From Candidatus Nanoarchaeia archaeon (lineage in GTDB: Archaea; Nanobdellota; Nanobdellia; Woesearchaeales; UBA12501), in assembly GCA_035289765.1 (NCBI GenBank), contig DATDWE010000041.1, positions 1-29,829 on the forward strand: a stretch of DNA of 29,829 nucleotides. Reading direction: 5' to 3'. Within the stretch, counting starts at the first letter, position 1. Each line of letters starts with the position of its first letter. This document shows positions 58 through 19,249 of the stretch, in pieces. Made by a program: the position numbers and the translations under genes. The notes under the pieces were generated by a model. That model searched no databases. It was not told the DNA's origin and saw only the letters and a program-made list of their open reading frames with translations.

Positions 58-79
58 TTGATGCCTGTTGGTGGGCAGT

Positions 80-799
80 ATGATAGAGTCAATTGCTTAT
101 GATCTGGAAGGTACTGTTGTGGATGTAGAATTTGCACACCATCAGGGCCATATTTATGCAGCAGAGAAAGTAGGAGTTATTCTTACATTAGAAGATTGCT
201 TTCAAAAACTGCCTCACTTTATGGGAGGTCCAGACGACCAGGTTGCAAAAGAGATTGCAGCGCTGGCCCTGCAGAATGGAACAGAAGTAAGCCATGAATC
301 TATTTTAGAAAACAAAAGAAACCATTATGAATTGTTGCTAAAAGAAGCAGAGATAAGGCCTAGAATTGGTTTTCTTAATTTTTTCAATATCATAAAATAT
401 CTGGGGTTGGAATGCACAATAGGTTCTTTGACAGACAGAGAACACGCAGAGGTTCTTTTGGATAGAAGCGGAGTTGGAAAGCTGTTTGGATATGAGAATA
501 TAGTCCTGCGCGAACATGTAAAGAACCCAAAACCTGCACCTGATGTGTGGTATGAAACAGCAAAGAGGGCTGGAGTGAACCCAGAAGATCAGCTTGTCTT
601 TGAGGATTCTCCGAAAGGAATCAAAGGAGCTGTCCAAGTTGGCGCATATTGTATTGGGATGCCTGTTTATAACCGGCCAGATATAATCTCAGCTCTGGTG
701 GATGCTGGAGCAAAGAGGATATTCATGGAGTGGGATGAGATCAACCCAGCACAATTGATAGAGAATATAAACGGAGAACTTGGGAAAGAGGGCAGGTAG
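80..799 (+). CDS. HAD-superfamily hydrolase, subfamily IA (beta-phosphoglucomutase/CbbY-like)
   Basis: Motif I YDLEGTVVD, cap-domain helices, motif III KNPKPAPD, motif IV VFEDSPKG. Start moved from TTG 68 to ATG 80 (GGTGGG upstream; TATA spacing). Confidence 0.85.
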   Translation: MIESIAYDLEGTVVDVEFAHHQGHIYAAEKVGVILTLEDCFQKLPHFMGGPDDQVAKEIAALALQNGTEVSHESILENKRNHYELLLKEAEIRPRIGFLNFFNIIKYLGLECTIGSLTDREHAEVLLDRSGVGKLFGYENIVLREHVKNPKPAPDVWYETAKRAGVNPEDQLVFEDSPKGIKGAVQVGAYCIGMPVYNRPDIISALVDAGAKRIFMEWDEINPAQLIENINGELGKEGR

Positions 800-878: not shown

Positions 879-919
879 TAAGCCGTATCTATGATTGCAG
901 CAAGGGGGATTATAATACA

Positions 920-1984
920 ATGCTCAAAGTTGAGGCTGTTGACCAGTATACATCTGACAAGATAGTTGCTTTTAAAGGTGCCATAAAGCTAATTGAAAGG
1001 CTCAAGAAAAGCGGCAAGACAGTGGGATTATGTCATGGAGGATTTGATCTACTGCATCCAGGCCATGTAAAGCACTTTGAGTCCGCAAAGAAGCTGTGCG
1101 ATGTTCTTTTTGTGTCAGTTACATCAGACAGATTTGTGTCCTGCAGAAAGGGCTCAGGAAGGCCTATATTCACTGACAGGCTAAGGGCATACATGGCTGC
1201 TTCTGTCAGGTTTGTTGATTATGCTGTGATAACTGATTTCCAGAAAGCGATGGAGATATTGAAGCAATTAAAACCTACATATTATATAAAGGGCCCAGAT
1301 TTCATAAACAAGAACACTCCAGGGATCATAGCTGAAAGGGAGGCAATAAAGGATGTTGAAGGAGAGATGAAGTACACAAATGATCCTCCTTCAAGCACAA
1401 CAAAGATAATTGAGTACATAAAAAAGGACCTTGATGTGAAGAATGTGCTTCTCCTTATTGACAGGGATGGCACAGTCATAAAGAATGACGACTTTCCTGG
1501 AAAGAATGACAACTGGAGGAATGAGCTTGAATTCAATGAGGATGTGATAAGCTTTATATCATACCTGCAGACAAAATATGATACAATAAAGATTATCATC
1601 TCTAACCAGACAGGTGTTGCTAGGAGATTCTTTGACTGCAAGAGGGTGGAAGATGTCAATGATTTTGTGATCTCGCACCTGTCAAAGAAGGGGATCAGGA
1701 TAGATAATGTGCAGTACTGCCCTGATGCAGACAAAAAATGGGCAGATAAACATCCTGGGCTTGGTCTGGACAGAAGATATATCAAGGACAAGACAAAAAG
1801 AAAACCTGGCAATGTGATGGTGCTCGACGCCCTTAAAGAACTGAAGAAGGAGCTGAATGATTTTACAGAGATAATAGTGATAGGGAATGGAGAAGATGAC
1901 AAAGGCCTTGCAGAAAGTCTGAATGCCTTATTCATCGACATTAATGGGAAGGATTATAAGGCGCTGCTGAAAGAATTCCCGTAA
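920..1984 (+). CDS. Fusion: RfaE domain II-like (cytidylyltransferase-fold) heptose-1-phosphate nucleotidyltransferase plus C-terminal GmhB-like HAD phosphatase
   Basis: N-half: HGGFDLLHPGH (HxGH), VSVTSD, RKGSGRP, YIKGPDF, SSTT. C-half: LIDRDGTV, SNQTGVARR, YCP, RKPG. Confidence 0.85.
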   Translation: MLKVEAVDQYTSDKIVAFKGAIKLIERLKKSGKTVGLCHGGFDLLHPGHVKHFESAKKLCDVLFVSVTSDRFVSCRKGSGRPIFTDRLRAYMAASVRFVDYAVITDFQKAMEILKQLKPTYYIKGPDFINKNTPGIIAEREAIKDVEGEMKYTNDPPSSTTKIIEYIKKDLDVKNVLLLIDRDGTVIKNDDFPGKNDNWRNELEFNEDVISFISYLQTKYDTIKIIISNQTGVARRFFDCKRVEDVNDFVISHLSKKGIRIDNVQYCPDADKKWADKHPGLGLDRRYIKDKTKRKPGNVMVLDALKELKKELNDFTEIIVIGNGEDDKGLAESLNALFIDINGKDYKALLKEFP

Positions 1985-2014: not shown

Positions 2015-3022
2015 CTATTTCCTTCCATAGAAGAGATGCAACCCAACAATTGTAGGGACATTCAGATCAAAGTTTGCCCCTCCTTCTCTTATTCTTCTTA
2101 TTGCCTCAGGTTCAGTAGGAACTGCATAAATCCTGTCATGCTCTTTCATGACTTCTTCATTGCCATAACATCTCTGAACAATATCCTCAATTCTTGGGCC
2201 GGTTATGTTTATATGGACGAATAGATCAGGTGCTCTTGAGAAATCTTTTGCAAGATAGCATCTGTGCATCTTGAATTCATCCGGCTTGACGGTAAGCTCT
2301 TCTTCCATCTCTTTCATAATATTGTCCTGTACATGCTTGTCCCCCCATTCAGGAGTTCCTCCCAATATGCCTATAGTGCCCCCTTCAACTGCAAGGTTTT
2401 TTCCCCTTCTTCCTAATATAAAATATGATTTTCCATCTTTTCCCCTGGCTGTTACAACAAATCCAAGGCCAAGCATGTTTGAGAGGCCTGAACAAGCAGG
2501 ATCCAATGCCCTGCCACCTACAACCTCATAGGATCTTAAGGTTTCCCCTTCCCTGAATGAAGGGTCATATTTTGCAAGTGGAATATCCATTGACTTGTTT
2601 GTTGCAAGAAATTCTCCGTATCCTACCGGCCTTACACAAAGATTTATCTTTGACATTGCCCCTTCAGCATCATTTATGGACCATGCCCCTATGCCCATAT
2701 GAGGGATATCAAAAAATGAGCCTTTCTTTTCTTCAATAATGCTCTGAGCGAATTTCCTGAATCTTTCAGGCACTTCATAAGGTTCATTGAGTAGGGAAAG
2801 ATTTATTTCATCCAATTTGCTGTCAGCGACATAAACAAAAGGATATTCTATGCCGTCTATTGTAACAAGTTTTTCATTATAATAAAGCCCTGCTAGCCTC
2901 TCCAGCTCTGGCCTGTTATTATGCCTTTTGGCAGCTGAAGATCTTGCCTGGTCCTGTGGATTGAGAAAGAATTCAAATGATTTCAGTCCATCTCCGAGAT
3001 CTATTGCGTTTACCCCCATCAT
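2015..3022 (-). CDS. Uncharacterised protein with a degenerate C-terminal Nudix fold (NUDT22-like appearance)
   Basis: GYGEFLATN; LSNMLG..VVT...YFILGRR; Nudix-box-like GGTPEWGDKHVQDNIMKEMEEELTV. Start overlaps the upstream TGA. Confidence 0.55.
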   Translation of the reverse strand: MMGVNAIDLGDGLKSFEFFLNPQDQARSSAAKRHNNRPELERLAGLYYNEKLVTIDGIEYPFVYVADSKLDEINLSLLNEPYEVPERFRKFAQSIIEEKKGSFFDIPHMGIGAWSINDAEGAMSKINLCVRPVGYGEFLATNKSMDIPLAKYDPSFREGETLRSYEVVGGRALDPACSGLSNMLGLGFVVTARGKDGKSYFILGRRGKNLAVEGGTIGILGGTPEWGDKHVQDNIMKEMEEELTVKPDEFKMHRCYLAKDFSRAPDLFVHINITGPRIEDIVQRCYGNEEVMKEHDRIYAVPTEPEAIRRIREGGANFDLNVPTIVGLHLFYGRK

Positions 3023-3693
3023 TCTCCGTTACCTGCAACAGCATGAACTTTGAACGTGTGCTCAAGTTCAATCCTTGCAATCTCCCTTACAGCCTCTGAA
3101 TAGAAGAATCCTGGCTTTTTTATCAGCCTTGCAAGGTCTTCTTTTGATGTGGGTGCTCCAGGCACACCACCGTATATCTTCAGATGCATAAGCGTGTATC
3201 TCCAGAGCTTGTCTGCATCCCTGACAAAACCGTCTTCTGCTGAAAGGAATCCTTTTCTTGTGTCATGACCATCCACTATTTCACATATTGGTTTGATATA
3301 TCTTTGAGGATATCTAATCTCGTGAAGCAATCTTTCCGCAAAAATGGATCCCTGCTCTTCGTGCTTTAGCCTTAACCTGCGTTCAATATCAGGATTTACC
3401 AGCGAACCGCGGAATGAGTCAAGCTCCTCTTTTGTCATCAAACCCCAGCCAGCGTCATGAAGCATTGCCGCAGGAATAACTATTGCCCTTTCTGCCTTGG
3501 TATAATCAAGAAACCTTAATGCAAAATAAGTGACACACTCTGCATGGCCAGGATCATCCCCCTTGTCCTGGTATTTCAGCGCAGTATCCCATATCCCAAT
3601 CTCTTCAGGAGTGAGCAATTTGATTATATTGCTGCCTGAGCCGTCAGGATTCCATTTATTATAGTCTATTGGGTCGTGCTTAATATGTTTCAC
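3019..3693 (-). CDS. HD-domain metal-dependent phosphohydrolase
   Basis: GHAECV, MLHDAGW, KHEEQG, GHD, DADKL, i.e. the H...HD...D metal ligands. Confidence 0.85.
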   Translation of the reverse strand: MKHIKHDPIDYNKWNPDGSGSNIIKLLTPEEIGIWDTALKYQDKGDDPGHAECVTYFALRFLDYTKAERAIVIPAAMLHDAGWGLMTKEELDSFRGSLVNPDIERRLRLKHEEQGSIFAERLLHEIRYPQRYIKPICEIVDGHDTRKGFLSAEDGFVRDADKLWRYTLMHLKIYGGVPGAPTSKEDLARLIKKPGFFYSEAVREIARIELEHTFKVHAVAGNGE

Positions 3694-3751: not shown

Positions 3752-5047
3752 CTATTTTATTTTGCAGAAAAAGTCACTGAATTTAGATAGAACATAATCA
3801 ATCTGATTCTTTTGCAGACCAGGATAAACCCCAATCCAGAAGCTGTTGTTCATTACCAGGTCTGTATTCCTGAGGTTGCTCACTTTCCGGTATTTGATGC
3901 TCTTGAAGTAGGGCTGCTTCGTGATATTGCCTGCAAATAGCATCCTTGTGGCAATCCTGTTGTTCTCCAGGAAGCTTATAAGGTCTTTCCTGCTGAAATT
4001 GGCTCCTGGACTGATGGTAATCAGAAGGCCGAACCAAGACGGCTCTGAACCAGGCTCTGCTTTTTGTATCATTATATGATCCTCAAATCTTTTGAGGCCT
4101 TTGGCCAGAAGGTCATAGTTACTTCTCCTCGCCCTTATGAATTCAGGCAGCTTCTCAAGCTGGGCCAGACCTATAGCCGCATTTATATCTGTATTCTTCA
4201 GGTTGTAACCAATTTCCGAGAAGATGTATTTGTGATCATAGCCAAAAGGCAGTTCTCCTAGCTTCCATCCAAACCTCTTTCCGCATGCATTGTCCTGCCC
4301 TGTTCCGCAGACACAGTCCCTTCCCCAGTCTCTCATGCTCCTAACAATGCGTGCAAGCTGAGGGTTATCGGTGCAGACAGCGCCTCCTTCTGCCATAGTG
4401 ATATGGTGCGCTGGATAGAAGCTGAATGTGCTTATGTCACCAAATGTGCCCGTATATTTTCCACCATATTTTGATCCAAGGGCATCGCAGTTGTCCTCGA
4501 TGAGCCATAAATCCTTCTCCCTGCACAGCTTGATAACCTCTTTGATGTTGAATGGATTGCCAAGTGTATGCGCTAATACCACTGCTTTTGCCTTGTGTGA
4601 GACTGCTTTCTTAAGCTCGTCAATATCCACATTGCCTGTCATGACATCCACATCACAGAATACAGGAACACATCCTGCCTGGATTATTGGGTTGACTGTA
4701 GTGGGAAATCCCGCAGCAACTGTTATAACTTCGTCCCCTTCCTTCAGTTGCCTGCCCCCTAGCTTCTCTGATGTGAGTGACATCAGTGCCAAAAGATTTG
4801 CAGAGGACCCTGAGTTCACAAGAATGGCATTCCTTGTTCCAAGAAAGCGTTTAAGCTTCTCTTCAAACTCCTTTGCGAACTTGCCATCAGTCCACCAGCA
4901 ATCAAGAACAGCATCAACTGCAGATATGAGTTCTTTCTCATTGAATGTCTTGCCAGCTACAGGCACTCCAGATATCTTCTTTAAAGAGATCTCTTTTGAA
5001 TAGTATTCCTTTATAAGACCAAATATTTTTTTCCTTATTTCAGACAA
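3752..5047 (-). CDS. rfbH: CDP-4-keto-6-deoxy-D-glucose 3-dehydrase (E1, RfbH/DdhC)
   Basis: DegT fold; SFYPAHHITMAEGG has His in place of the Schiff-base Lys; [2Fe-2S] motif GRDCVCGTGQDNACGKRF plus GYDHKY. TTG start with AGGTG SD. Confidence 0.93.
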   Translation of the reverse strand: MSEIRKKIFGLIKEYYSKEISLKKISGVPVAGKTFNEKELISAVDAVLDCWWTDGKFAKEFEEKLKRFLGTRNAILVNSGSSANLLALMSLTSEKLGGRQLKEGDEVITVAAGFPTTVNPIIQAGCVPVFCDVDVMTGNVDIDELKKAVSHKAKAVVLAHTLGNPFNIKEVIKLCREKDLWLIEDNCDALGSKYGGKYTGTFGDISTFSFYPAHHITMAEGGAVCTDNPQLARIVRSMRDWGRDCVCGTGQDNACGKRFGWKLGELPFGYDHKYIFSEIGYNLKNTDINAAIGLAQLEKLPEFIRARRSNYDLLAKGLKRFEDHIMIQKAEPGSEPSWFGLLITISPGANFSRKDLISFLENNRIATRMLFAGNITKQPYFKSIKYRKVSNLRNTDLVMNNSFWIGVYPGLQKNQIDYVLSKFSDFFCKIK

Positions 5048-6834
5048 TGTGATGCACCTTGCGTTCTCTTTTCCTTTTTGTATGGGCTTATGAGCATTGA
5101 TTCCTTCAGCTCTTCTTCGCTCAGCCTGGGGCTTATGTCTTCTATTGGATGCTCCACCTCCAGCTTTGGGACAATCTTTGTGTCCTCTTGAGTGAGCACT
5201 TCAATGATGGCATTCCTGTCAGAAGTCAGTGCCTTTCTCACGTTCTCGATGTCCTTAATGCTCTTCTCATCAATAAGATAATATTTCAGACCGTATGCCT
5301 TTGCAATGTCTTTTATGCTTGGGACAAGATATCCGCTTTTCTTTGTTGTTGCCAGCTTTCTCTCTCCAAAATAAAGGTCCTGGAATTGGGTTATCATGCC
5401 TAAAGATTCGTTGTTCAGCACCACAACTTTTATCGGGAGATCATATTGAGAGATCAGCATAAGAGACTGTGTTGAGATGTGGAATCCTCCGTCTCCAGTC
5501 ACTGCTATAACCTCTCTTCTCTTGTCAGTGCATACGCTTGCGCCTATTGCAGCAGGAACAGCATATCCCATGGGGGCCAGGCCTCCGCTAGTGAAGAATT
5601 TCTGCCCTTTTCTGATCTTGAGCATCTGGGCAGAGAACATCTGGTTCTGGCCAATATCCACACAGAATATCTGGTCCTTTCCATATATCTTGTTCAAGGC
5701 ATTAAGTATCTCATAGGGCATTTTGTTCTTCACATGCCTCTCAATGTCCCAGGACTGGCTGTACTTTGACTTTATTTTCCTTACATAATCAAGCCATTCA
5801 TCATTGCTTTCTTTTTTTGTCTTGGAGTTGATTTTCCTCAAAAATCTTCCTGCATCGGCATGGATCTCTATCCTGCCCTTAAGGCGATGATGCTGCAATT
5901 CGTTCCTGTCAATATCAATGTGCAAAAGCTTTCCTTTCCTGAGAAAGCTGTCGAGTGCTGTTCCTGTCTGCCTTGTGTCAAGCCTGGTTCCCAATGCAAT
6001 AAGAAGGTCTGCATTGGCAGTCACGATGTTAGCGCATCTGTTGCCATAGCTGCCTATCATGCCAATATGAAGATCGTTGTCTTCAGGAAAGGCCCCCTTC
6101 CCCATCAAAGAGTTCACCACAGGGATATTGTTTGATGTGCAGAAATCAAAAAGGGCTTTCTCTGCCTTTGCGTTTATCACTCCCCCCCCTACGAGCATTA
6201 AAGGCCTCTTGCTTGATTTTATAAGCTCTTTGGCCTTAGATAGATCCTCTTCTGAAACATCAATATTGTTGTCATCAGGCCTGTATGACTCAAGCTCATC
6301 AGGATTGATATCAGCACTTTGTATGTCCATGGGAATGTCAAGAAGCACGGGACCCGGCCTGCCTGATGATGCGATGTGGAATGCCTTCTCAAGAAAATAC
6401 TTTATCTTGCTTGCATCATCGACAAGTGCTGCTAATTTTGTAATCGGCTTAACAATATCAACAATATTTGTCTCCTGGAATCCCTGCTGCCTGATGGGCT
6501 TTTTATACTTGTATTCATAAGTGTTCACCTGGCCCGTGATGTATACTGCAGGTATTGAATCAAAGAAAGCGTCTGCGATGCCTGTAATCAGGTTTGTTGC
6601 GCCTGGTCCGCTTGTAGCCATTGCAACGCCTATCTTTTTTGGGCTGTCTGATATCCTTGAATAGCCCTCTGCTGCAATTGCTGCTGTCTGCTCGTGATAT
6701 ACCTGTATGAACTGCACTTTATTTGAGGCATATATTGAGTCTACAAGATGCGTTATTGCCCCACCTATAAACCCGAACACATGGCTTATTCCCCTGTCCT
6801 CCAAAAACTTGGATATATAATCTGAAACCTTCAT
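5035..6834 (-). CDS. ThDP-dependent acetolactate-synthase-like protein (YerE-like by context)
   Basis: HEQTA catalytic Glu, TSGPGATN, ITGQV, SGRPGPVLLDIP, ThDP motif GDGG...NN; overlaps rfbH. Confidence 0.85.
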   Translation of the reverse strand: MKVSDYISKFLEDRGISHVFGFIGGAITHLVDSIYASNKVQFIQVYHEQTAAIAAEGYSRISDSPKKIGVAMATSGPGATNLITGIADAFFDSIPAVYITGQVNTYEYKYKKPIRQQGFQETNIVDIVKPITKLAALVDDASKIKYFLEKAFHIASSGRPGPVLLDIPMDIQSADINPDELESYRPDDNNIDVSEEDLSKAKELIKSSKRPLMLVGGGVINAKAEKALFDFCTSNNIPVVNSLMGKGAFPEDNDLHIGMIGSYGNRCANIVTANADLLIALGTRLDTRQTGTALDSFLRKGKLLHIDIDRNELQHHRLKGRIEIHADAGRFLRKINSKTKKESNDEWLDYVRKIKSKYSQSWDIERHVKNKMPYEILNALNKIYGKDQIFCVDIGQNQMFSAQMLKIRKGQKFFTSGGLAPMGYAVPAAIGASVCTDKRREVIAVTGDGGFHISTQSLMLISQYDLPIKVVVLNNESLGMITQFQDLYFGERKLATTKKSGYLVPSIKDIAKAYGLKYYLIDEKSIKDIENVRKALTSDRNAIIEVLTQEDTKIVPKLEVEHPIEDISPRLSEEELKESMLISPYKKEKRTQGASHCLK

Positions 6835-7769
6835 TCTCTGAATCCTACCTCATTCCTGACAATAAAATTAGGACGCTGCTTGACCTCATCATATATCCTG
6901 GCGAGATATATCCCTATTATTCCAAGAAGAAAGAAAAGCGCACCAAAGAAGAATAATATGATAAGTATGGTTGTGGTGAATCCCGGCACTTTCCTTCCCA
7001 GAGTGATGAAAAGCGCTATTTCTACAATGAAAAGTATCAGGGCTATTATGAATGTGAAAAAACCAAACCATGTCGCAATCTTCAGCGGAAAGTAGGAGAA
7101 TGAGAATATTCCATTCATTGCGACATCAAGCGCCTGGAATATATTTGCCTTTGGCTTGCCTGCAAAACGCGGTGGCCTCCTAAAGGGAATTCCAGTCTGC
7201 CTGAATCCTGTCCATGCTATGACTCCCCTAAGAAATTTGTTCCTCTCCTGCATTGAGTTAACAGTTAAGTACACCTTGCGGTCAATCAACCTGAAGTCGC
7301 TTGCGTTCTTGGGTATCTTCTTGTCTGTAAGCCAGTTCAGGACCTTATAAAATAATGAAGATACAATTCTTCTTGACAATGACACTCCTTTTCTCTTTTT
7401 TATGATTCCATACACAATCTCATAGCCCTGCTCCCATTTCTCTATAAATTTTGTAATCATTTCAGGAGGATCCTGAAGATCAGCGTTCATTATTACAGCT
7501 GCATCTCCTCTTGCATAATTTAGGCCAGCAGTGATGCCTCCATCACATCCAAAATTCCTTGATAGCTGAAGAATCTTGAACCTTTTATCCTGCTCATGGA
7601 AAGAAAGTAGTTTCATGTATGAAGAGTCATTTGAGCCGTTCTCCACGATTATGAACTCAAGATCATAGTTCTTGAGGCTGTAAGCAGCAGCCTGAAGCCT
7701 TCTTCGTAGTTCGTCCAGAACCTCCTCTTCGTTGTATGCAGGAATGACTATGCTTATAAGCTTTTTCAT
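6831..7769 (-). CDS. GT2 polyprenol-phosphate glycosyltransferase (GtrB/ArnC/DPM1-like)
   Basis: IVIPAYNEE, ENGSND, SRNFG, NADLQDPPE, DFRLIDR, two C-terminal TM helices, RIYDEVKQRP. Confidence 0.92.
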   Translation of the reverse strand: MKKLISIVIPAYNEEEVLDELRRRLQAAAYSLKNYDLEFIIVENGSNDSSYMKLLSFHEQDKRFKILQLSRNFGCDGGITAGLNYARGDAAVIMNADLQDPPEMITKFIEKWEQGYEIVYGIIKKRKGVSLSRRIVSSLFYKVLNWLTDKKIPKNASDFRLIDRKVYLTVNSMQERNKFLRGVIAWTGFRQTGIPFRRPPRFAGKPKANIFQALDVAMNGIFSFSYFPLKIATWFGFFTFIIALILFIVEIALFITLGRKVPGFTTTILIILFFFGALFFLLGIIGIYLARIYDEVKQRPNFIVRNEVGFRE

Positions 7770-7772
7770 GGA

Positions 7773-7788
7773 TTAAACCCCCATATAT
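7773..7788 (-). repeat. 16-bp leader motif TTAAACCCCCATATAT, copy 1
   Basis: Identical to 13219-13234 and similar to 25075-25090; lies 22-24 nt downstream of a TATA box in each case. Confidence 0.7.
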
Positions 7789-7806
7789 ATGAAAGGCGCT
7801 TTATTT

Positions 7807-7830
7807 ATATATTTTTCTAGAAAAATATAT
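7807..7830. repeat. Perfect 24-bp palindrome ATATATTTTTCTAGAAAAATATAT overlapping the BRE/TATA (7804-7811, minus strand) of the GT2 operon
   Basis: Left arm 7807-7818 is the exact reverse complement of 7819-7830. Confidence 0.85.
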
Positions 7831-7832
7831 TT

Positions 7833-7839
7833 AAAAAAA
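7833..7839 (-). terminator. Candidate archaeal oligo-T terminator after rfbG
   Basis: T7 tract on the minus strand starting 3 nt after the rfbG stop. Confidence 0.4.
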
Positions 7840-7841
7840 GG

Positions 7842-8918
7842 TCAAGAATACATGTTAATCTGCTCCATGCAAAGCGCCTTTATGTCCTCTTTTGAGCTTC
7901 TTTTATACCATTCTACGGCGTTTATTATGCCTTTTTCAAGGCTGAACCTGGGTCTCCATCCAAGTTTTCTCTTGGCTTTGGAGTTGTCGAGACACAGCAT
8001 CTTTGTCTCATGCATCTTCTCATCAGGATTGCTGATGTCCTTCCATGATCCTTTGCCCCACTGGCTTATTACAGTATCAACAACCTTTGATACCTTTGCT
8101 ATAGAATCTGCATCAGGCCCAAAATTCCAGGCTTCTGCATATTCTTTTCTGCCCTCAAGGAGCATCTTTCCTAAGAGAAGATACCCATAAAGAGGGTCCA
8201 GGATGTATTGCCAGGGCCTTACTGAAGAGGGGTTTCTCACAAGTATGGGCTTATCATTATTCAGGGACGTTATGCAGTCAGGAACAAGCCTGTCCTTCCC
8301 AAAGTCTCCTCCCCCAATGACATTCCCTGCCCTGGCAGAAGCGACAAGTTTGCCTGTTTGCATAAGAAAAGAAATTCTGTAAGAATCTATTGCAATCTCA
8401 GAGCAGGCTTTGGAAGCGCTGTAAGGGTCATAACCCCAAATTTCGTCACACTCCTTATATCCGCAATTCTGCTCCTTGTTCTTATAGCATTTGTCTGTTG
8501 TGATGATTACTCCTGCTTTCACAGACTCTGTATGCCTTATGCACTCAAGGATGTTTACAGTGCCAATAAGATTTGTCGCAAATGTGTCCACTGGCTGCCT
8601 GTAAGATTCTCTGACCAGTGACTGGGCTGCCAGGTGAAAGACAATTTCTGGATTGTATTTATCAAAGACATTCTTCAAATATTTAAGGTCCCTGATATCA
8701 CCATATTCATTGATGATATTGCTCTTTAGGCCAGAATTCCTGAAAACAAAGTCATTCTCGCAATTATCAAGAGAAAATCCAATTACCCTGGCTCCAAGAT
8801 TGCGAAGCCACATCGCAAGCCATGCTCCTTTGAAACCGGTGTGGCCAGTGATTAATACAGTCCTACCCTTGTATACATCATTGAATGCGGACTTAATGGT
8901 ATTCACCACACCTTCCAT
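7842..8918 (-). CDS. rfbG: CDP-glucose 4,6-dehydratase
   Basis: ITGHTGFKGAWL, HLAAQSLV, TTDKCY, DPYSASKAC, ARAGNVIGGGD, RPWQ, WNFGP. Confidence 0.95.
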   Translation of the reverse strand: MEGVVNTIKSAFNDVYKGRTVLITGHTGFKGAWLAMWLRNLGARVIGFSLDNCENDFVFRNSGLKSNIINEYGDIRDLKYLKNVFDKYNPEIVFHLAAQSLVRESYRQPVDTFATNLIGTVNILECIRHTESVKAGVIITTDKCYKNKEQNCGYKECDEIWGYDPYSASKACSEIAIDSYRISFLMQTGKLVASARAGNVIGGGDFGKDRLVPDCITSLNNDKPILVRNPSSVRPWQYILDPLYGYLLLGKMLLEGRKEYAEAWNFGPDADSIAKVSKVVDTVISQWGKGSWKDISNPDEKMHETKMLCLDNSKAKRKLGWRPRFSLEKGIINAVEWYKRSSKEDIKALCMEQINMYS

Positions 8919-9688
8919 TTATGGTCTTTTTCCCAAAGATCATTGAGCTCCTTCAGGTGCTTTGGAGTATCCATTGCATACCAAAAATCATTTAGCTCAT
9001 AAGCCGCAAGTTCATTGTCTTTGGTGAGCTTCTTCATCGGTTCTTCCTCAAAGATGCATGATTCATCCCTGCTTAAGTAGCCAAATATCTTTTTATTGCA
9101 CACAAAGAATCCTCCATTCATCCTTCCATTAACATGCGGCTTTTCTTTGAAAGATGTAATCATTCCTTTGTTTATCTCAACAATGCCATATTGTGATCTG
9201 AATGGGGTTGCTGTTAGTGTAAGTATCTTTCCCTTTTTCTTATGATAATTATAAAGATCTTCTAAGTTTATGCTCGCAAGGCCATCTCCATAAGTTAGGA
9301 AGAAGTCTTCATCATCCTTGAGCAGATGCTGAACCCTTGCAATCCTTCCCCCAGTCATTGTGTTCTGGCCAGTATCTACAAAATGTATCTTCCAGTCGTC
9401 AAGTGCATTATTATTGTGATGCATTATCTTTGACTCCTTTGACCTTAGATTAAGCGTGAAATCGTTTGCAAGCTGTTCAAAATTGAGAAAGTATTCTTTT
9501 ATCATCTCTCCCTTATAACCCAGGCATAGAATGAACTCTTTTACTCCGTAATGGGAATATATCTTCATGATATGCCACAGAATAGGCATATTGCCTATCT
9601 TGACAAGAGGCTTTGGCTTGAATTCTGTCTCCTCCTTCAGCCTTGTGCCTGTACCCCCGCACAGGATCACTGCTTTCATGTTCTTCAC
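8903..9688 (-). CDS. rfbF: Glucose-1-phosphate cytidylyltransferase
   Basis: VILCGGTGTRLKEET..KPKPLV, LGYKG, DTG..TMTGGRI, TYGDG, NGGFFV, MDT; GGGGG SD at 9696-9700. Confidence 0.95.
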   Translation of the reverse strand: MKNMKAVILCGGTGTRLKEETEFKPKPLVKIGNMPILWHIMKIYSHYGVKEFILCLGYKGEMIKEYFLNFEQLANDFTLNLRSKESKIMHHNNNALDDWKIHFVDTGQNTMTGGRIARVQHLLKDDEDFFLTYGDGLASINLEDLYNYHKKKGKILTLTATPFRSQYGIVEINKGMITSFKEKPHVNGRMNGGFFVCNKKIFGYLSRDESCIFEEEPMKKLTKDNELAAYELNDFWYAMDTPKHLKELNDLWEKDHKWKVW

Positions 9689-11619: not shown

Positions 11620-12183
11620 TCAACGCTGTTCTCTCAGGTAAGTGGCAAGGAAATGCCCGAATATGCCATGCACATCCTCACAGACCTCATAATTATCCTT
11701 TGGAAGGTAGGCATAGTAGTCAGAAAGCTCCTTCAGTTTCCCTCCCTTGAATCCGCAGATGCCTATAGTTATCATTCCCAGCCCCTTTGCAAACTTTACA
11801 GCCTCAACAACATTGGGGCTGTTTCCTGAAGATGATATCATTATGAGGATATCATTTGGAGAGGCCAGGTTTATCAGCTGCTGCTTGAAGATCTCATTAT
11901 AATGCTCATCATTGGATATTGCAGTCAGGTACCCTATGTTTCCTGTAAGACATATTGCCCTGTATCTCTTGAAGTTCTTGGACCAGTCCTGTGTTGCGCC
12001 TTTTGAAAGATCGCACACATAATGTGATGCAATAGAGGCGCTCCCCCCATTGCCACCAACAAATATCTTCTGGTTGTTCTTTATTGAATTCTTAAGGATT
12101 TCAAGGATCTCTGGACGGAACTCAAATATGTCTAATGCGTCCTTTATTTTTTCCTTGTACTTGCCCCATTCCTTATGAACCAT
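11620..12183 (-). CDS. gmhA: SIS-domain phosphoheptose isomerase (GmhA-like)
   Basis: GGNGGSASIASH, AISND, ISSSGNSPNV, CEDVH. Start moved from TTG 12189 to ATG 12183 (GGTG SD). Confidence 0.85.
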   Translation of the reverse strand: MVHKEWGKYKEKIKDALDIFEFRPEILEILKNSIKNNQKIFVGGNGGSASIASHYVCDLSKGATQDWSKNFKRYRAICLTGNIGYLTAISNDEHYNEIFKQQLINLASPNDILIMISSSGNSPNVVEAVKFAKGLGMITIGICGFKGGKLKELSDYYAYLPKDNYEVCEDVHGIFGHFLATYLREQR

Positions 12184-13213
12184 TGCCAAACACCTTTTCT
12201 TCCATGAAAGACAGAAGCATTTCTTTTGTCACGCTCTCCTTGTTACCGATTATGTTTGCTGCTATACCCCCTGCACAGTTTGCAACAAAAGGCACAATAT
12301 CATTGTCTGCATTGAGATATACAACCAAAGAGGTTATTGCAAAAAGAGCATCTCCTGCTCCGACAGTATCCTTTACAGAGGTTGTAACAATTGGCGCTTT
12401 AAAAATATTGCCATTGGCAACAAAGATTGAGCCCTTATTCCCTCTTGTCACCATAAACTTCTTCAGTTTGAATGTTTCCTTTGCCTCCTTTATTACCTCA
12501 AGGATGTCCTCAAATCTCCTCAAGAGAGGAAGTCTTAGCTCTGATTCGTCCATTGAAGTAAAGTCCATGTTATTATATAGCCTAAAATAGTTATAGCCCA
12601 TATTTGCGCTGTTTGACTGCGTATTGACTGCCAGGAAATTTGCCTTTTCTTCAAGCTTTCTTCTTATCGCTTCATTGATAAATCCGTGCCCAAAATCCCC
12701 CACAATTGCAAGATCATACTTTGGAAGCTCCTCATCAAGATAGTCAACAATCTCCTTTGAGAGTTCTTCTGTTATCGGCTTATCATTCATATATTCTATC
12801 TTGAAAAGCTTGTTGTTCCTGTGGGAATCTATAAATCTCTTCTTTATTATTGTTGGCGAATCTTTTTTTAAGAATGTCTTGACTGCCACATTGCCCTTTA
12901 CTGACTTTTTGATAAAGTCAAGGTTCGTCCTCTGATCTCCAATAATGGTTACAACCTTCACTTTGCTAACAAATCCACTCAGATGATTTGCTATTGCAAG
13001 TATTCCTCCAGCATAATTCTCCTCGCTGATAAATTCAGCAGATAGTATGGGATCCTTCACAGCCCTTCCTTTAGGCTTGACAAATACATAGGTGTCTATT
13101 ATTGTGTCCCCAACAACAAGAACGTTCAGCTTTGCTGCCTTATCAAGAACTGATTTTATCCTTCCAAAATCAAGGCTCTGTTTTACCTTCTTGATATAAT
13201 CCTCTGTGTCCAT
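12173..13213 (-). CDS. PfkB-family kinase, RfaE/HldE domain I-like (heptose-7-phosphate kinase), stand-alone
   Basis: VLVVGDTIID.Y, GG..A.A, TI.KKRF, GDFGHG, VTRG..G, DTVGAGD. Confidence 0.88.
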   Translation of the reverse strand: MDTEDYIKKVKQSLDFGRIKSVLDKAAKLNVLVVGDTIIDTYVFVKPKGRAVKDPILSAEFISEENYAGGILAIANHLSGFVSKVKVVTIIGDQRTNLDFIKKSVKGNVAVKTFLKKDSPTIIKKRFIDSHRNNKLFKIEYMNDKPITEELSKEIVDYLDEELPKYDLAIVGDFGHGFINEAIRRKLEEKANFLAVNTQSNSANMGYNYFRLYNNMDFTSMDESELRLPLLRRFEDILEVIKEAKETFKLKKFMVTRGNKGSIFVANGNIFKAPIVTTSVKDTVGAGDALFAITSLVVYLNADNDIVPFVANCAGGIAANIIGNKESVTKEMLLSFMEEKVFGNGS

Positions 13214-13283: not shown

Positions 13284-14501
13284 TTATTCTAACAGATGCT
13301 TATTCTCCCTGAGGAATTTAGCTCCAATACGGGAAAGAAATCCATGACAATGGCTTCCCTGCCTGAATAGCGCCCTGAATCTTTTCTGAAACTCCCTGTC
13401 CTCCTCTGTCTCCCTCCATGCGCCGTCTATCCTTTCATTTACCTCTTTGACAAGGTCAAGAATCTCCTCAGGAGTATTGTCAACCCATCTGACCCCTGCG
13501 TTCTTGTATTCGTCAGCCCTCCATGCATTGCTCAGGCCGGAATCCACAATCTCTTTAAAAGTAAGCAGCCTCTTTTTCCTTAATGAGTATAGTTTCTTTG
13601 GTATGTATACCCCCCTGCAGCTCCACGGAGGGTTCTCCAATGGAAGAACATTGACCCAGGCCTCCGGAACATTGAATATCTGGCCGACTTGATTCAGTCC
13701 GCATCCGTCCCCTAGAAAAAACTTGCATCTTGACGGGAGATATATATCGCCAAACTCTGACCTGTGCTTTGTCGCATAATCAATGACCCTGCTGCTCCCC
13801 ATATCAGGGAGCCTCTTCTCAACAATAGCCCCCATCCTGACTGCATAACCTCCTTTCGAATTGATGTATTCGACAGCTTTCATAGCAGTTGCTATGTCCC
13901 AGTTCCTGTAATCATGGTAGCTTGTGTCTATTGATTTCAGTTCATGAGCAAGATATTTTGGCCCTCTTGAGTGGAAGCAGATGAACCAGTCATTGCCCTT
14001 AAGCCCCATTTCTCTCAAAAGCCCCTCACCTTTTATTTTCTCCGGCCCAGTGAACTTCAGAACAGGTTTTCCATATGAGAATTCCTTGTATTCGTTTGAT
14101 TCCATTGGAAGGTCTTTGAAAAATCCAAGCTTTGCCACCAAGGACATCTTATTAAACAAAAGCTGAATAATTGTGCCGTTGATTATCTCTGGTACCTGGA
14201 TTATGGGCAGCACTCTTTTATACATCTTCAGAAGCTGCTTATTGGCAATCTTTGTTCCAGTTATGCCTATGAATTTTATTTTTCTTTTCTTTATTATCCC
14301 CATATCAAGCCTTCTAAGGAACACTTCTGTATTTGCGGCAAGATGACCTATCCTCTCCGACCTTATCTTTATGAACTTCAGCTTCACTAAAGGATCAAGC
14401 GTAAACAACAGCAATACGACCGGCAACATTGTAAGATTGATGAGTGCAAAAGTCAATGTCTTCAGTATTTTTGACCTGTTGTAGATGTCTATTAAGCCCA
14501 T
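13284..14501 (-). CDS. TIGR04372-family putative glycosyltransferase (distant GT9/heptosyltransferase relative)
   Basis: RIGHLA near the N-terminus; WFICFHSR, YHDYRN, GGYAVRMG, DIYL...CKFFLGDGCGL, PKK, DNTPEEI...V.E; one N-terminal TM. Start moved from TTG 14528 to ATG 14501 (GGTGA SD). Confidence 0.75.
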   Translation of the reverse strand: MGLIDIYNRSKILKTLTFALINLTMLPVVLLLFTLDPLVKLKFIKIRSERIGHLAANTEVFLRRLDMGIIKKRKIKFIGITGTKIANKQLLKMYKRVLPIIQVPEIINGTIIQLLFNKMSLVAKLGFFKDLPMESNEYKEFSYGKPVLKFTGPEKIKGEGLLREMGLKGNDWFICFHSRGPKYLAHELKSIDTSYHDYRNWDIATAMKAVEYINSKGGYAVRMGAIVEKRLPDMGSSRVIDYATKHRSEFGDIYLPSRCKFFLGDGCGLNQVGQIFNVPEAWVNVLPLENPPWSCRGVYIPKKLYSLRKKRLLTFKEIVDSGLSNAWRADEYKNAGVRWVDNTPEEILDLVKEVNERIDGAWRETEEDREFQKRFRALFRQGSHCHGFLSRIGAKFLRENKHLLE

Positions 14502-14554
14502 GTTTTCACCGCAATCCTGTATAATCAACAGACCTCTTTTAGCCCTTCCGGAAC

Positions 14555-15034
14555 CTAAAGCGATTTGTCTTTCTTTAGGCTTATGAATGCGGGCTTTTTT
14601 GAGTTATATGCTTTCATCACCGCTTCCCGTGTTTCCTTGGAGTTTTTGGGGAAGAAAGATTCAATGTTCCTGAAAAGTTTCATGAGCTGGGGACCGTCAA
14701 TCTCTGCATGTGTGGGTCCTTGGGTGGGGTAATCAGCATATCCCACAAGCTTGACATTGACGTTCTGCTCATTGATGTCCAGCTTAACCTGCTCAAAAGG
14801 CCTCTCTATGAGAAAGGGAGTTATTGTGTACACCCACGGCTTAAACCCTTCAAGCGCCATTCCAGAAGCTGCGCTTATCATGCTCTGCTCGCATATGCCG
14901 AAATTGAAGAATCTGTCAGGAAATCTATTGACAAACTCGTCAAGAACACCATAGCCAATATCACCCACTATCAAGATTACCTTTTCATCCTTTTCCGCAA
15001 GCTCAACTATAAGCCTTCCGAATTCCTTTCTCAT
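14555..15034 (-). CDS. Transketolase C-terminal-type subunit, pyrimidine-binding domain only (159 aa)
   Basis: GDIGYG, DRFFNFGICEQSM...ASGMALEG.KP, FLIERPFEQVK, GPTH; lacks the usual C-terminal domain. Confidence 0.85.
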   Translation of the reverse strand: MRKEFGRLIVELAEKDEKVILIVGDIGYGVLDEFVNRFPDRFFNFGICEQSMISAASGMALEGFKPWVYTITPFLIERPFEQVKLDINEQNVNVKLVGYADYPTQGPTHAEIDGPQLMKLFRNIESFFPKNSKETREAVMKAYNSKKPAFISLKKDKSL

Positions 15035-15795
15035 CTCAGCTCCTCATATGCCTGCTTTAGCTCATCTCCTTTGGGCAGCCTGCTGTGCCATTTAGGATCA
15101 TTCTCCATAAAGCTTATCCCCTTTCCTTTTACTGTGTCTGCGATTATCACTCTTGGAGTATCCTTGACTATTGTTTTGCTGCCAAGCTTGTCAGCAAGCT
15201 CTTTCACATTATGGCCTGCTGACATGATTACGTTGCATCCAAAGGCCTTGAATTTGGATTTGAGTGAATGCTCTGTTTCATTCATTACATCCTTTATTGT
15301 TGTGAGCGCCTGAAACTTGTTGAAATCTATTATTGCAGTAAGATTGTCAAGCTTGTATCTCTGGGCAAGGTTCATTGACTCCCATATTGTCCCTTCCTGG
15401 CATTCGCCGTCGCCCATCACAACATAGACATGGCCTTTCTCTTTCTTTAATTTCTTTGCGAATGCCATGCCAACTCCAATTGGAAGGCCATGACCAAGGC
15501 TGCCTGTTGTGCAGTGAATCCCCTCGCAAACCTGAATATCGGGATGCCCGCTTATTGTGGGGCAGTAACCAAGCTCCATGAGCGCAGTGTAGAGTGCCAG
15601 ACAACTATGCCCTTTGCTGAGTATAAGCTTGTCATTCTCCTTTAAAATCCTGAAATAAAGCGCTACAAGAATCTCGACAATTGAAAAGGAGGGAGCTATA
15701 TGGCCATCATTGTACTTCATTGACATGTCAAGTATGTCTTTCCTTATTTTCTTTGCTTTTTGCTCCAATGTCTGTGTACTGTTCATTAGGATCAC
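15031..15795 (-). CDS. Transketolase N-terminal (ThDP-binding) subunit
   Basis: GHIAPSFS, LSKGH, TGSLGHGL, GDGECQEG...N, TVKGKG, WH. The start could also be ATG 15786. Confidence 0.9.
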   Translation of the reverse strand: MILMNSTQTLEQKAKKIRKDILDMSMKYNDGHIAPSFSIVEILVALYFRILKENDKLILSKGHSCLALYTALMELGYCPTISGHPDIQVCEGIHCTTGSLGHGLPIGVGMAFAKKLKKEKGHVYVVMGDGECQEGTIWESMNLAQRYKLDNLTAIIDFNKFQALTTIKDVMNETEHSLKSKFKAFGCNVIMSAGHNVKELADKLGSKTIVKDTPRVIIADTVKGKGISFMENDPKWHSRLPKGDELKQAYEELR

Positions 15796-15801
15796 ATGAG
15801 A

Positions 15802-16887
15802 TTATACAAAATTTACATGCTCTGGAGGATTCTTAAGTTTCCATAAGAAATCATTTATCCAGTGGGTCCTGCAGTTTGAATAACATTTCTCATGTACATT
15901 TATTTTGCTGACCTTGTCTACAACTTCCCAGTATCTGTCGCTTTTGATTATGTCCTTGAATGACTGCTTTGTAAGGTCTCCCATGAGGTATTCATCGGAT
16001 TTATCATTGAAGAACACTCCGCAAGGATACAGTTTTCCGTCTCCTGAGGAGTACAGTAGGAAAGGCACCCCAAGGCAGCGGTCGTAGTCCCTTGCGCCCT
16101 CATTGCCTATCTTCAGCCATTTAACAATGACATTGTAACCTTCTGTTGTCTCGGCCTCTGCTGCTTTCAGTATCTCTGTGAAGCTCTTGTATTTCCCAAG
16201 CTGCTTGAATATCCCGAGGTCATTGTCAACAGTGTCACTGCACTGCTTTATCACAAAATAATCCACTCCGAGCTCTTTTCCAAGCTTTGCCAAGGGGATT
16301 GCCTGATCAACATTGGTTGGTGTAAGCACCATTTGCAGACCTATTGTGACAGGAAGTTTGAGCTCCTTTTTCTTCTCGACACAGAACTTTACACTCTTTA
16401 TAAAACTAGAGAAAAGGGGGCTTCCATGCACTCTTTTGTATGCTTCGTCGGATGCTGCGCTTATATTGAATCTTATCCACGTCAGGTTCTTGAGAGCAGA
16501 TATGCCTTTCTCTCCTCTGTCAAAGATTGTTCCATTTGTCCCAAGAGCCATGTCAACTCCGGCTTTTCTTCCTTCAACAATTGCATCATACATATGCGGA
16601 TTCATCAGAGGTTCTGCTTCTCCGATAATGGCCATGGATCTTACCCCTGCTTCTCCGGCATCCCTCATATATCTCAATAGAGGCTCTCTTGGAAAGTACA
16701 CTTTAGCGCCATTCTTGTAGAGGTTGCCCTGTATTGCACCATAACAATACTCACATCTTATGTTGCATCCTTTGCTCAACCCCACATCAATGTGTATCGG
16801 AGCTATCTTCTTCCCACTAAGCCAGTCATTCACTCTGTCAAGATGCCACAGCAGTTTGTGGCCTTCCATTTTGTATCTATCAACCAT
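15802..16887 (-). CDS. Radical SAM protein with C-terminal twitch/SPASM domain (paralog 1)
   Basis: CNIRCEYC, GEAEP, TNG; C-terminal C-x17-C...CYSNC. Confidence 0.92.
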   Translation of the reverse strand: MVDRYKMEGHKLLWHLDRVNDWLSGKKIAPIHIDVGLSKGCNIRCEYCYGAIQGNLYKNGAKVYFPREPLLRYMRDAGEAGVRSMAIIGEAEPLMNPHMYDAIVEGRKAGVDMALGTNGTIFDRGEKGISALKNLTWIRFNISAASDEAYKRVHGSPLFSSFIKSVKFCVEKKKELKLPVTIGLQMVLTPTNVDQAIPLAKLGKELGVDYFVIKQCSDTVDNDLGIFKQLGKYKSFTEILKAAEAETTEGYNVIVKWLKIGNEGARDYDRCLGVPFLLYSSGDGKLYPCGVFFNDKSDEYLMGDLTKQSFKDIIKSDRYWEVVDKVSKINVHEKCYSNCRTHWINDFLWKLKNPPEHVNFV

Positions 16888-17748: not shown

Positions 17749-17822
17749 ACCCCACAGAGCCCATATAAGGCAATAACAGGAATATTAATATATATACGCA
17801 TTTATATTTGTTTAATAGGTTA

Positions 17823-17862: not shown

Positions 17863-18285
17863 ATGAAATTAAAACAAGTTGCCTGCATCATACTGTATGA
17901 TAAGGACAAGAAAGTCCTGCTGCAGCATAGGACAAAGTACACAAAGAGGCTCCCTGATCACTGGGCTTTTTTTGGAGGTTCTGTGAAAAAGGGGGAGACT
18001 CCTAAAGAGGCTGCAATAAGGGAGGTAAAAGAAGAGCTTGATTTTGTTTCTAAAAACCCAAAACTTGTGATGAGGCAGGAATATGAGCTCAATGGAGAAA
18101 GAAAGATCAAGAATGTCTTTGTTGAACAGTGTGATGGCAAGGATTCATTAAATCTTCATGAAGGCCAGGGACTGGGATGGTATGATATTGATGAGACAAA
18201 AGACCTCAAGATGATATCCCATGACAGGGAGGCCCTATACTACATCAGAGACAGGGTGTTTCCTTCGCTCACTTCAGATATTTGA
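17863..18285 (+). CDS. Nudix hydrolase
   Basis: Canonical Nudix box GGSVKKGETPKEAAIREVKEELDF. Start moved from TTG 17857 to ATG 17863. Confidence 0.9.
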   Translation: MKLKQVACIILYDKDKKVLLQHRTKYTKRLPDHWAFFGGSVKKGETPKEAAIREVKEELDFVSKNPKLVMRQEYELNGERKIKNVFVEQCDGKDSLNLHEGQGLGWYDIDETKDLKMISHDREALYYIRDRVFPSLTSDI

Positions 18286-19249
18286 ACCATGCCTTTGTGG
18301 CTTGTTCTATCTTCTCAGGAGTCCACAATGGAGCATCTTTCCAGTAGTCAATATTTTCAAGCATGATCTTCACACCATCCTCAAAGGGTACTTTTGGCTT
18401 CCAGTCAAGAAGCTTTTTAGCTTTTGATATATCTGCATGAGTTGAGTCCGGCTCTCCAGGCCTTTTTGGGATATATACCTTTTCTCCCCCAATAAGTTCT
18501 GCCAGATGATTTATTGACTGTGGTTTTCCTGCCCCTATATTGATTATCTCGCCATTGATATCAGACTCTGCTGCAAGCAGGTTTGCCTCAGCAACATCTG
18601 TAACATAGATAAAATCCCTTGTCTGACTGCCATCTCCTACAATAGTGAGGGGCTTCTTCTCAAGCTTTTGTTTCAGGAATACCTTGAATACGGCACCATA
18701 TGTTTTGTTCGTCCTTGCCCTTGTGCCAAAAACATTGAAGTATCTCAAAGAAACAGCTGGAATCTTGTAAAGCCTGCTCCAGAACATAACACACTGCTCT
18801 CCAAGATATTTTGTGAAGGCATATGGATATTCCGGCCTTATGTCAGCATTCTCATTAGTAGGGTACCTGTCGGGGATCCCATAGCAGGATGAAGAAGCGC
18901 TGTATATAATCTTTTTTATGCTATATTTTCTGCATGCCTCCAGCACCCTGACTGTTGCGGTCACGTTTGCCTCATGATATCTTACAGGATTCTCTATAGA
19001 AGGGACAATGTCTGCCAGTGCAGCCATATGGAACACATAATCTGTCCCTTTAAAAAAAGAATCATCAAACCCTTTTGAAAGGTCTATCTTCAGGAACCTG
19101 TATTTTGGATTGTCCTTGAAGAGCTCTACATTGTCAAGCTGCCCATTGGACATATCATCTACAGCAACTACCTCAAATCCTTTTTTCAGGAGCAGCTCAA
19201 CCAGATGGCTTCCGATAAAGCCTGCCCCCCCTGTGACAATTGCCTTCAT
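18269..19249 (-). CDS. NAD-dependent nucleotide-sugar epimerase/dehydratase (extended SDR)
   Basis: VTGGAGFIGSHL, FHMAA, ASSSCYG, YAFTK, LRYFNVFG, GDGSQTRDFIYV.DVA; GGTGAGG SD. Confidence 0.92.
   Translation of the reverse strand: MKAIVTGGAGFIGSHLVELLLKKGFEVVAVDDMSNGQLDNVELFKDNPKYRFLKIDLSKGFDDSFFKGTDYVFHMAALADIVPSIENPVRYHEANVTATVRVLEACRKYSIKKIIYSASSSCYGIPDRYPTNENADIRPEYPYAFTKYLGEQCVMFWSRLYKIPAVSLRYFNVFGTRARTNKTYGAVFKVFLKQKLEKKPLTIVGDGSQTRDFIYVTDVAEANLLAAESDINGEIINIGAGKPQSINHLAELIGGEKVYIPKRPGEPDSTHADISKAKKLLDWKPKVPFEDGVKIMLENIDYWKDAPLWTPEKIEQATKAWFKYLK

Follow-up and report, generated by a model that had tools for sequence, protein, structure and literature searches.

A nucleotidyltransferase-phosphatase fusion in a DPANN archaeon as a probable enzyme for the last two steps of heptose activation

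Background

Microbes build nucleotide-heptoses into their surface glycans, and the innate immune receptor ALPK1 of vertebrates is activated by ADP-, CDP- and UDP-heptose. Two routes to the activated sugar are known, one leading to the ADP-beta form (HldE/HldC) and the other to the GDP-alpha form (HddA/HddC). Here we ask what is made by a gene of an archaeal contig (DATDWE010000041.1 of assembly GCA_035289765.1, Candidatus Nanoarchaeia archaeon), in which a nucleotidyltransferase and a phosphatase of the HAD-IIIA class are joined into a single protein. The whole stretch of 29,829 nucleotides that was analysed is called the window, and the gene in question the fusion gene (Table 1). Judging from its motifs, predicted fold and gene context, the product is probably a bifunctional enzyme, acting both as heptose 1,7-bisphosphate 7-phosphatase and as heptose 1-phosphate nucleotidyltransferase.

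The host is an archaeon, since genes for Nop5 and fibrillarin are present in the window, and it belongs to the DPANN archaea given that the closest homologues of the fusion protein carry Woesearchaeota or Nanoarchaeota labels. Its genome assembly measures 0.84 Mb and is 82% complete.

Two catalytic domains in one chain

The reading frame is open over its full length and translates into 354 amino acids (aa). Its ATG and N-terminus (MLKVE...) line up with those of the relatives (MLKID...), and because 118 full-length relatives are 52-67% identical to it across both halves, a chance open reading frame can be dismissed. An earlier inspection of the sequence, hereafter the original prediction, had proposed that an HxGH nucleotidyltransferase ending in SSTT is coupled here to a DRDG HAD domain, and that the RfaE-I kinase is encoded separately on the other strand about 10 kb away. 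Both statements hold: the motifs and domain matches are in place, and the kinase is found as a gene of its own (rfaE_dom_I, E 1.6e-33). A Pfam search gave no match to a PfkB domain within the 354-aa protein, which is consequently not an HldE-like chain.

An AlphaFold2 (AF2) model of the fusion, built on 20 relatives, reached a mean predicted local distance difference test score (pLDDT) of 87 and a predicted template modelling score (pTM) of 0.58. Confidence drops at residues 151-170 (block means 70 and 57), a stretch that covers the last transferase helix (160-170). Taken together, the pTM and this dip mean that each domain is well modelled while their mutual placement is uncertain.

Table 1. 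Location of the features of the window that are discussed in the text, with the evidence for each (cut-offs are those of the profile named).
Feature	Position (nt)	Strand	Evidence or remark
HAD-IA gene, beta-phosphoglucomutase type	68-799	+	120 bp upstream of the fusion gene
Putative promoter, TATA-like box TTTATAAA	871..878	+	42 nt 5' of the fusion ATG; resemblance to consensus only
Putative ribosome-binding site, GGGGG stretch	905-909	+	ends 10 nt before the fusion start codon; resemblance to consensus only
Fusion gene, nucleotidyltransferase + HAD-IIIA phosphatase, 354 aa	920..1984	+	reading frame, translation, domain matches, 118 full-length relatives, AF2 model (pLDDT 87)
N-domain (residues 1-172), HldC/RfaE-II-like cytidylyltransferase fold, type-B clade	920..1435	+	TIGR02199, Foldseek, alignment, tree
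C-domain (residues 176-354), GmhB/HisB-N-like HAD-IIIA phosphatase	1445..1981	+	TIGR01656, PRK08942, Foldseek, alignment, column counts
Glycan island (about 21 kb)	2015-22319	-	fusion gene at its edge
HD-domain gene overlapping gene for a 335-aa protein	2015-3693	-	335-aa protein with weak NUDIX match (E 7e-4)
CDP-3,6-dideoxyhexose gene set	3752-9688	-	profile scores; between fusion and isomerase/kinase
GmhA-like SIS isomerase, divergent type B	11620..12189	-	TIGR00441, 115.9 bits (cut-off 209), E 1.6e-33
RfaE-I/HldA-like PfkB kinase, divergent type B	12173..13213	-	TIGR02198, 116.2 bits (cut-off 345), E 1.6e-33; overlaps the isomerase gene
TIGR04372-family glycosyltransferase	13284..14528	-	TIGR04372, 204 bits; directly upstream of the kinase
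Split transketolase-like pair (254 aa + 159 aa)	14555-15795	-	thiamine diphosphate (ThDP) and pyrimidine-binding domains only, without the C-terminal domain
Two radical SAM/SPASM genes and a 638-aa B12-binding radical SAM gene	15802-22319	-	
Extended SDR epimerase/dehydratase	18269..19249	-	GalE model 176 bits, heptose 6-epimerase model 142 bits, both below cut-off
Nop5 and fibrillarin genes	22380-24073		

The nucleotidyltransferase domain

In the N-terminal half of the protein, Pfam CTP_transf_like covers residues 38-165 (E 2.4e-13) and NCBIfam rfaE_dom_II (TIGR02199) residues 24-168 (E 3.7e-30). The pattern GxFDxxHxGH is present as GGFDLLHPGH (residues 40-49, with HPGH at 46-49, nt 1055-1066), KG is found at residues 77-78 and SSTT at 158-161 (nt 1391-1402). 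Among the 118 relatives H46 and T161 occur without exception, T160 in 116 and H49 in 110. According to Foldseek, the nearest single-domain structure is HldC of Burkholderia pseudomallei (5xf2, E 3.4e-9, template modelling (TM) score 0.75-0.78 by target, root-mean-square deviation 3.0-4.2). The domain thus shares with HldC and RfaE domain II the cytidylyltransferase fold, the HxGH, KG and STT motifs and the linkage to a GmhA-like isomerase and a PfkB heptose-type kinase, but it is followed by a phosphatase instead of being fused to the kinase, and it falls in a separate clade (see below).

It might be argued that the protein does not act on heptose at all, the N-domain being an FAD synthetase (RibL) or a cytidylyltransferase for glycerol-3-phosphate or ethanolamine-phosphate, while the C-domain would dephosphorylate histidinol phosphate or some other compound. 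The PDB entry that matches best over the whole sequence is indeed 3elb, the human ethanolamine-phosphate cytidylyltransferase, with an E-value of 9.4e-13 that combines two weak stretches, and the HisB-N and GmhB models give the HAD domain roughly equal scores. Judged by single aligned stretches, nonetheless, HldC (5x9q) is the best match, its 40.4 bits comparing with 28.1 and 21.3 for the repeats of 3elb, and the E-value obtained with rfaE_dom_II compares with 2.4e-8 for the glycerol-3-phosphate enzyme (TIGR01518) and about 6e-3 for FAD synthase. Moreover, the domain is fused to and clustered with PfkB and SIS genes of the heptose type, and a search of the genome (82% complete) turned up no genes of the histidine pathway. 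We consider a non-heptose enzyme highly improbable. The identities as FAD synthetase or glycerol-3-phosphate cytidylyltransferase are ruled out by the profile scores together with the tree, in which the domain groups with heptose-type transferases fused to PfkB kinase or SIS isomerase domains; clustering with either enzyme, which the original prediction had named as evidence against itself, is not seen.

The phosphatase domain

In the C-terminal half all four HAD motifs (DxDGT, S/T, K and GDxxxD) can be traced: DRDGT at residues 181-185 (nt 1460-1474), S228 within SNQ (228-230), K295 within RKP (294-296) and G322-N-G-E-D-D327. D181, D183, R294-K295-P296 and D327 are invariant in all 118 relatives. 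The nearest single-domain structure found by Foldseek is Escherichia coli GmhB (2gmw/3l8e, TM score 0.67-0.69 by target), although HisB-N matches too. With this GmhB the domain has in common the HAD core fold, DxDGT, (S/T)NQ, RKP, the last Asp of motif IV and the position in the pathway. It differs by a 4-residue insert after motif I, by the GNGEDD form of motif IV, by the lack of a zinc cap and by its covalent attachment to the transferase.

Gene linkage points to GmhB as well, the transferase being fused and the GmhA-like and kinase genes lying in the same island (adjacent in most related loci). A role in histidine synthesis is unlikely, since neither imidazoleglycerol-phosphate dehydratase nor histidinol dehydrogenase was found in the window genome (82% complete); on the same ground, the reading as histidinol-phosphatase (HisB-N) was ruled out.

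Association with heptose genes

We analysed the gene context in two ways. In a sample of 300 genomes drawn evenly from the phylum, a full-length orthologue of the fusion is present in 12. In every one of these there are GmhA-like and RfaE-I-like genes too (nine times on the same contig), against background rates of 80/300 and 89/300, respectively. From the GTDB species representatives, the best 80 of 161 relatives were kept, of which 49 are full-length fusion loci. A window-type kinase lies within 6 kb of the fusion in 26 of these 49 loci and a window-type isomerase in 21, many of the contigs being short. Usually the fusion (plus strand) is followed by the isomerase and kinase genes in convergent orientation and directly adjacent (L020, L036, L038, L040, L042, L043, L052, L064 and L076). 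The window retains this orientation, but here 9.6 kb of minus-strand genes separate the fusion from the isomerase.

Both partners look active from their conserved residues. The isomerase keeps the equivalents of H61 and H180 and the SxSGNSxN phosphate loop, with E65 replaced by Asp and Q172 by Glu, and the GAGD catalytic motif of the kinase is invariant in 22 orthologues. In the phylum, canonical genes score about 150-240 bits (gmhA) and 145-400 bits (kinase), whereas a divergent type, which we call type B, scores about 100-125 and 107-131 bits; the window genes fall in the latter. The type-B kinase was found in 13 sampled genomes, 11 of which have the fusion and one (G190) a split form, its separate transferase and HAD genes lying on the same contig; in the remaining genome (G097) neither fusion nor split form was found.

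In the scheme that we propose, the separate GmhA-like isomerase would convert sedoheptulose 7-phosphate into heptose 7-phosphate, to which the separate PfkB kinase would add the anomeric phosphate. The HAD domain of the fusion would then strip the 7-phosphate, with Asp181 as nucleophile, Asp183 as general acid and Mg2+, and the HxGH/STT domain would finally combine heptose 1-phosphate with a nucleoside triphosphate (NTP) into a nucleoside diphosphate-heptose (NDP-heptose) for a surface glycan. The last two steps of the nucleotide-activated glycero-manno-heptose pathway would in this way reside in one chain. Substrates, nucleotide, anomer and any passing of the intermediate from one domain to the other are here predicted from the catalytic motifs and gene association that were observed directly.

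The connector between the two active sites (from T161 to D181) counts 20 residues in 110 of the 118 relatives. The helix that follows STT reportedly shifts in HldC during catalysis, and in the window protein it leads directly into the first phosphatase strand. By analogy, a connector of fixed length together with a moving helix would fit a mechanical coupling of both active sites, and substrate may be channelled between the two domains. The fusion is a modest variation on a known pathway and offers a compact system for asking whether consecutive steps are coupled.

Departures from the canonical enzymes

The original prediction had identified the two halves as RfaE-II and GmhB. They are HldC-like and GmhB-like, but neither is orthodox, and a number of observations weigh against the proposed function. 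Profile scores remain below the cut-offs throughout: 104.6 bits against 181.5 for rfaE_dom_II, and for the C-domain 63 against 84 with TIGR01656 (histidinol-phosphatase-type HAD-IIIA, residues 177-335), 53.2 against 178 with PRK08942 (GmhB), 42.8 against 149.6 with TIGR00213 and 41.4 against 44.6 with TIGR01662; the same is seen for the isomerase and kinase (Table 1). We know of no enzyme of the window's clade that has been assayed. In the transferase, of the five motifs through which HldC of B. pseudomallei was proposed (on the basis of docking, not of a complex structure) to bind heptose 1-phosphate, three are different, TNG being changed to CHG and NSD to TSD while EXTP is not conserved; the remaining two, KG and KGP, are found in the alignment. 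Likewise, no Phe lines up with Phe143, which stacks on the adenine in HldC. In the phosphatase, the CxH...CxC zinc-binding cap, described as unique to GmhB and HisB-N (PMC9798254), is missing: CPD (267-269) and T292-K293 stand in place of CxH and CxC, the region reads CPDAD...KTKRKP with a loop 8 residues longer than that of GmhB in the alignment, and His occurs at position 269 in only 3 of the 118 relatives. Furthermore, the first acid of motif IV is Asn323 in the window, as in 27 of the relatives, against Asp in the other 91. Finally, canonical and type-B genes coexist in three genomes (G207, G286 and G301; at separate loci in the first two), which suggests that the type-B product is not simply ADP-beta-heptose.

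As to the nucleotide used, the original prediction had remarked that the segment before STT lacks an Arg, and this proves correct: the window reads NDPPS ahead of STT. An Arg directly before STT (STTR5) is given as the hallmark of promiscuous heptose nucleotidyltransferases, a rule with exceptions, in Tang et al., Science 2024, as summarised in PMC11573728 and PMC11461863. Of the full (F/L)XXGXSTT motif, STT is kept while the aligned F/L and G are lost (N-D-P-P-S-S-T-T in the window, Y-T-x-(D/E)-P-x-(L/M/F/S)-S-T-T as consensus of the relatives). The residue directly before STT, Ser158 in the window, is L in 74, M in 30, F in 11 and S in 3 of the relatives and R in none, so that the whole family is without the STTR5 hallmark of NTP promiscuity. 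Because the rule has exceptions, this does not settle the nucleotide.

The changes in the C-domain could also mean that it is weak or inactive and serves as a binding or regulatory module, while another phosphatase, for example the HAD-IA gene just upstream of the fusion gene and on the same strand, removes the 7-phosphate. Besides Asn323 and the missing zinc cap, residue 264 (nt 1709-1711), just ahead of the YCPD cap motif, fits such a view, being Val in the window and Trp in 117 of the 118 relatives. DRDGT, S/T-N-Q, RKP and D327 are all intact, however, and a homologue of the upstream HAD gene, which is of the beta-phosphoglucomutase type, occurs in only 1 of the 49 related loci. Asn323, in turn, is paired with Asp326 and loss of R/K324 (GNxxDD) in 22 of its 27 occurrences, against GD(R/K)xED in 80 of the 91 relatives with Asp. 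The pattern resembles compensation more than decay, although the relatives are no independent samples. We regard an inactive HAD domain as improbable; more plausibly, the C-domain is a catalytically competent variant of the GmhB fold that dispenses with zinc.

A divergent gene set beside the canonical one

The product of the type-B genes can be approached through G301. Here one locus (L070 1-9517, contig C22) holds a canonical kinase (352.7 bits), GmhB (TIGR01656, 143 bits) and HldC (183.7 bits), all above cut-off, together with a GT9-like heptosyltransferase, a type-B transferase, isomerase and kinase (about 8 kb in all) and a B12 radical SAM gene. The genome as a whole has a single gene of the GmhA-like kind (type B) and a single one of the GmhB-like kind (canonical), against two kinases and two heptose-type transferases. 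As the only GmhA-like gene of this genome is of type B and clusters with the canonical kinase, GmhB, HldC and GT9-like genes, the type-B genes are tied to heptose. The duplicated steps are those that set anomer and nucleotide, a hint that the activated heptose made by the type-B pair is a different one.

It is conceivable, then, that the type-B set represents a parallel, undescribed branch that yields another nucleotide form (CDP, GDP or UDP), another anomer or a related sugar. The G301 cluster, with its single isomerase and phosphatase for two kinases and two transferases, would agree with this, and so would the presence of both sets at separate loci in G207 and G286, the altered sugar-binding and adenine-stacking motifs of HldC, and the pairing of the type-B kinase with the fusion or its split form. 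On the other hand, the duplicates may be redundant or differently regulated, and in G019 the fusion adjoins a kinase (313.7 bits) and an isomerase (202.6 bits) with canonical scores, so that it probably handles ordinary heptose intermediates there. Neither nucleotide nor anomer can be read from the sequence. We judge a parallel branch unlikely. With the same reserve, the type-B isomerase, kinase, phosphatase and transferase might constitute a third activated-heptose route with a different anomer, a different nucleotide or both, which would explain why, within one cluster, canonical and type-B pairs of kinase and transferase have a single isomerase and a single phosphatase in common. Since a divergent set stands beside a canonical one, the question of a different activated heptose in archaea can be tested with four recombinant proteins.

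Distribution and origin of the fusion

Whichever product the proposed bifunctional enzyme forms, the architecture itself is widespread. A word-index search returned at least 412 clusters at 90% identity, mostly from Woesearchaeota, Pacearchaeota and Nanoarchaeota with some from Patescibacteria; among the 120 clusters listed, nearly all are full-length and 52-67% identical to the window protein. The archaeal hosts of the 49 loci are Woesearchaeota, Pacearchaeota and Nanoarchaeota, including bins with other archaeal labels such as Methanosarcinales, while the bacterial hosts are Gottesmanbacteria and a few bins labelled, for instance, Spirochaetota or Cloacimonadota. The distribution is patchy, no full-length orthologue being found in six other sampled genomes of the window's family (one of them of its genus), and therefore the fusion gene is accessory.

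The original prediction had regarded the fusion as a reshuffled arrangement, and had named as its weak point that the architecture might be common and already characterised. The two-domain architecture is real and it is not rare, given its abundance in DPANN archaea and its occurrence in bacteria of the candidate phyla radiation (CPR). Nonetheless, our literature searches found neither a description of a transferase-phosphatase fusion nor an account of heptose synthesis in DPANN archaea. The family is also under-annotated, as its relatives are named only 'HAD-IIIA family hydrolase' at NCBI (and 'rfaE nucleotidyltransferase chain' at JGI).

A cross-kingdom survey (Tang et al. 2024, as summarised in PMC11573728 and PMC11461863) describes three architectures of heptose nucleotidyltransferases (monodomain, kinase/transferase and isomerase/kinase/transferase) and already reports their occurrence in archaea. 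The window family resembles that set in the kind of catalytic domain and in the same four pathway steps, but transferase-phosphatase is not among the three types listed there and the (F/L)XXG(R)STT motif is not kept. Relative to this listing, transferase-phosphatase would be a fourth architecture, widespread in DPANN archaea and present in CPR bacteria.

A quick IQ-TREE analysis of 106 transferase domains, a short search with many open forks, was used only for the split between type B and E. coli. Here a branch with 97% support (SH-aLRT, the Shimodaira-Hasegawa-like approximate likelihood ratio test) divides a type-B clade, containing the window family and forms fused to PfkB and SIS, from domain II of E. 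coli HldE. The E. coli side holds a second group of transferase-HAD and HAD-transferase proteins with a zinc cap. As transferase-phosphatase fusions are found on both sides of the branch, they arose at least twice. Distant fusions such as P0160, P0207, P0235 and P0153 likewise carry both activities in one chain (330-340 aa), but their transferase groups with HldE domain II, their HAD domain keeps the CPH...CxCRKP cap and their identity to the window protein is only about 30%, as expected of an independent fusion.

In a survey of the best 150 representatives at 50% identity, the window-type transferase was seen not only as transferase-HAD but also as transferase-PfkB, transferase-PfkB-SIS, HAD-transferase-PfkB and transferase-AAA_33. 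The transferase-PfkB form (about 505 aa, 65 cases) has the order of HldE reversed. It may be connected with BT_0477, a GmhB of Bacteroides thetaiotaomicron reported to prefer the alpha anomer, although a search by locus tag for such a link returned nothing useful. The AAA_33 domain, which is P-loop kinase-like, is fused to a type-B transferase in L077 (6001-7760), P0135, P0137, G190:C78 and G289:C20. In L077 this fusion is followed by a free-standing HAD gene of the window type and next by a SIS gene, and in L001 two AAA_33 genes lie between fusion and isomerase. Furthermore, type-B kinase and isomerase are joined in PfkB-SIS frames of 554-560 aa (G011:C3, G208:C48, G240:C15 and G097:C37; also L049 6648-8264); in such genomes all four steps may be obtained from two genes.

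Neighbouring genes of the glycan island

Several genes of the island could act on or next to the proposed NDP-heptose. The TIGR04372 glycosyltransferase is a candidate user of the activated heptose, and a homologue adjoins the kinase gene in two related loci (L018 and L049). No GT9 heptosyltransferase was found with Pfam in the window genome (82% complete). The SDR enzyme, with orthologues of 57-75% identity in 9 of the 49 related loci, may modify an NDP-heptose. Homologues of the transketolase-like pair occur near the fusion in 6 of the 49 loci. The pair was not adopted as supplier of sedoheptulose 7-phosphate, given that the C-terminal transketolase domain is missing; sugar tailoring would be an equally possible role.

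The genes that separate the fusion from its partners include the CDP-3,6-dideoxyhexose set, with glucose-1-phosphate cytidylyltransferase (304 bits, above cut-off), CDP-glucose 4,6-dehydratase (453 bits) and RfbH dehydrase (673 bits), as well as an acetolactate-synthase-like ThDP enzyme and a GT2 glycosyltransferase. As a whole, the set resembles a yersiniose-type route to a branched sugar.

The HD-domain gene and its overlapping partner are convergent with the fusion gene, the stop codons being 30 nt apart, and have homologues in 1 and 3 of the 49 related loci, respectively. Relatives of the B12-binding radical SAM gene (46-49% identity) lie near the fusion in L052 and L059, and genes of this type suggest C-methylation or rearrangement of a sugar.

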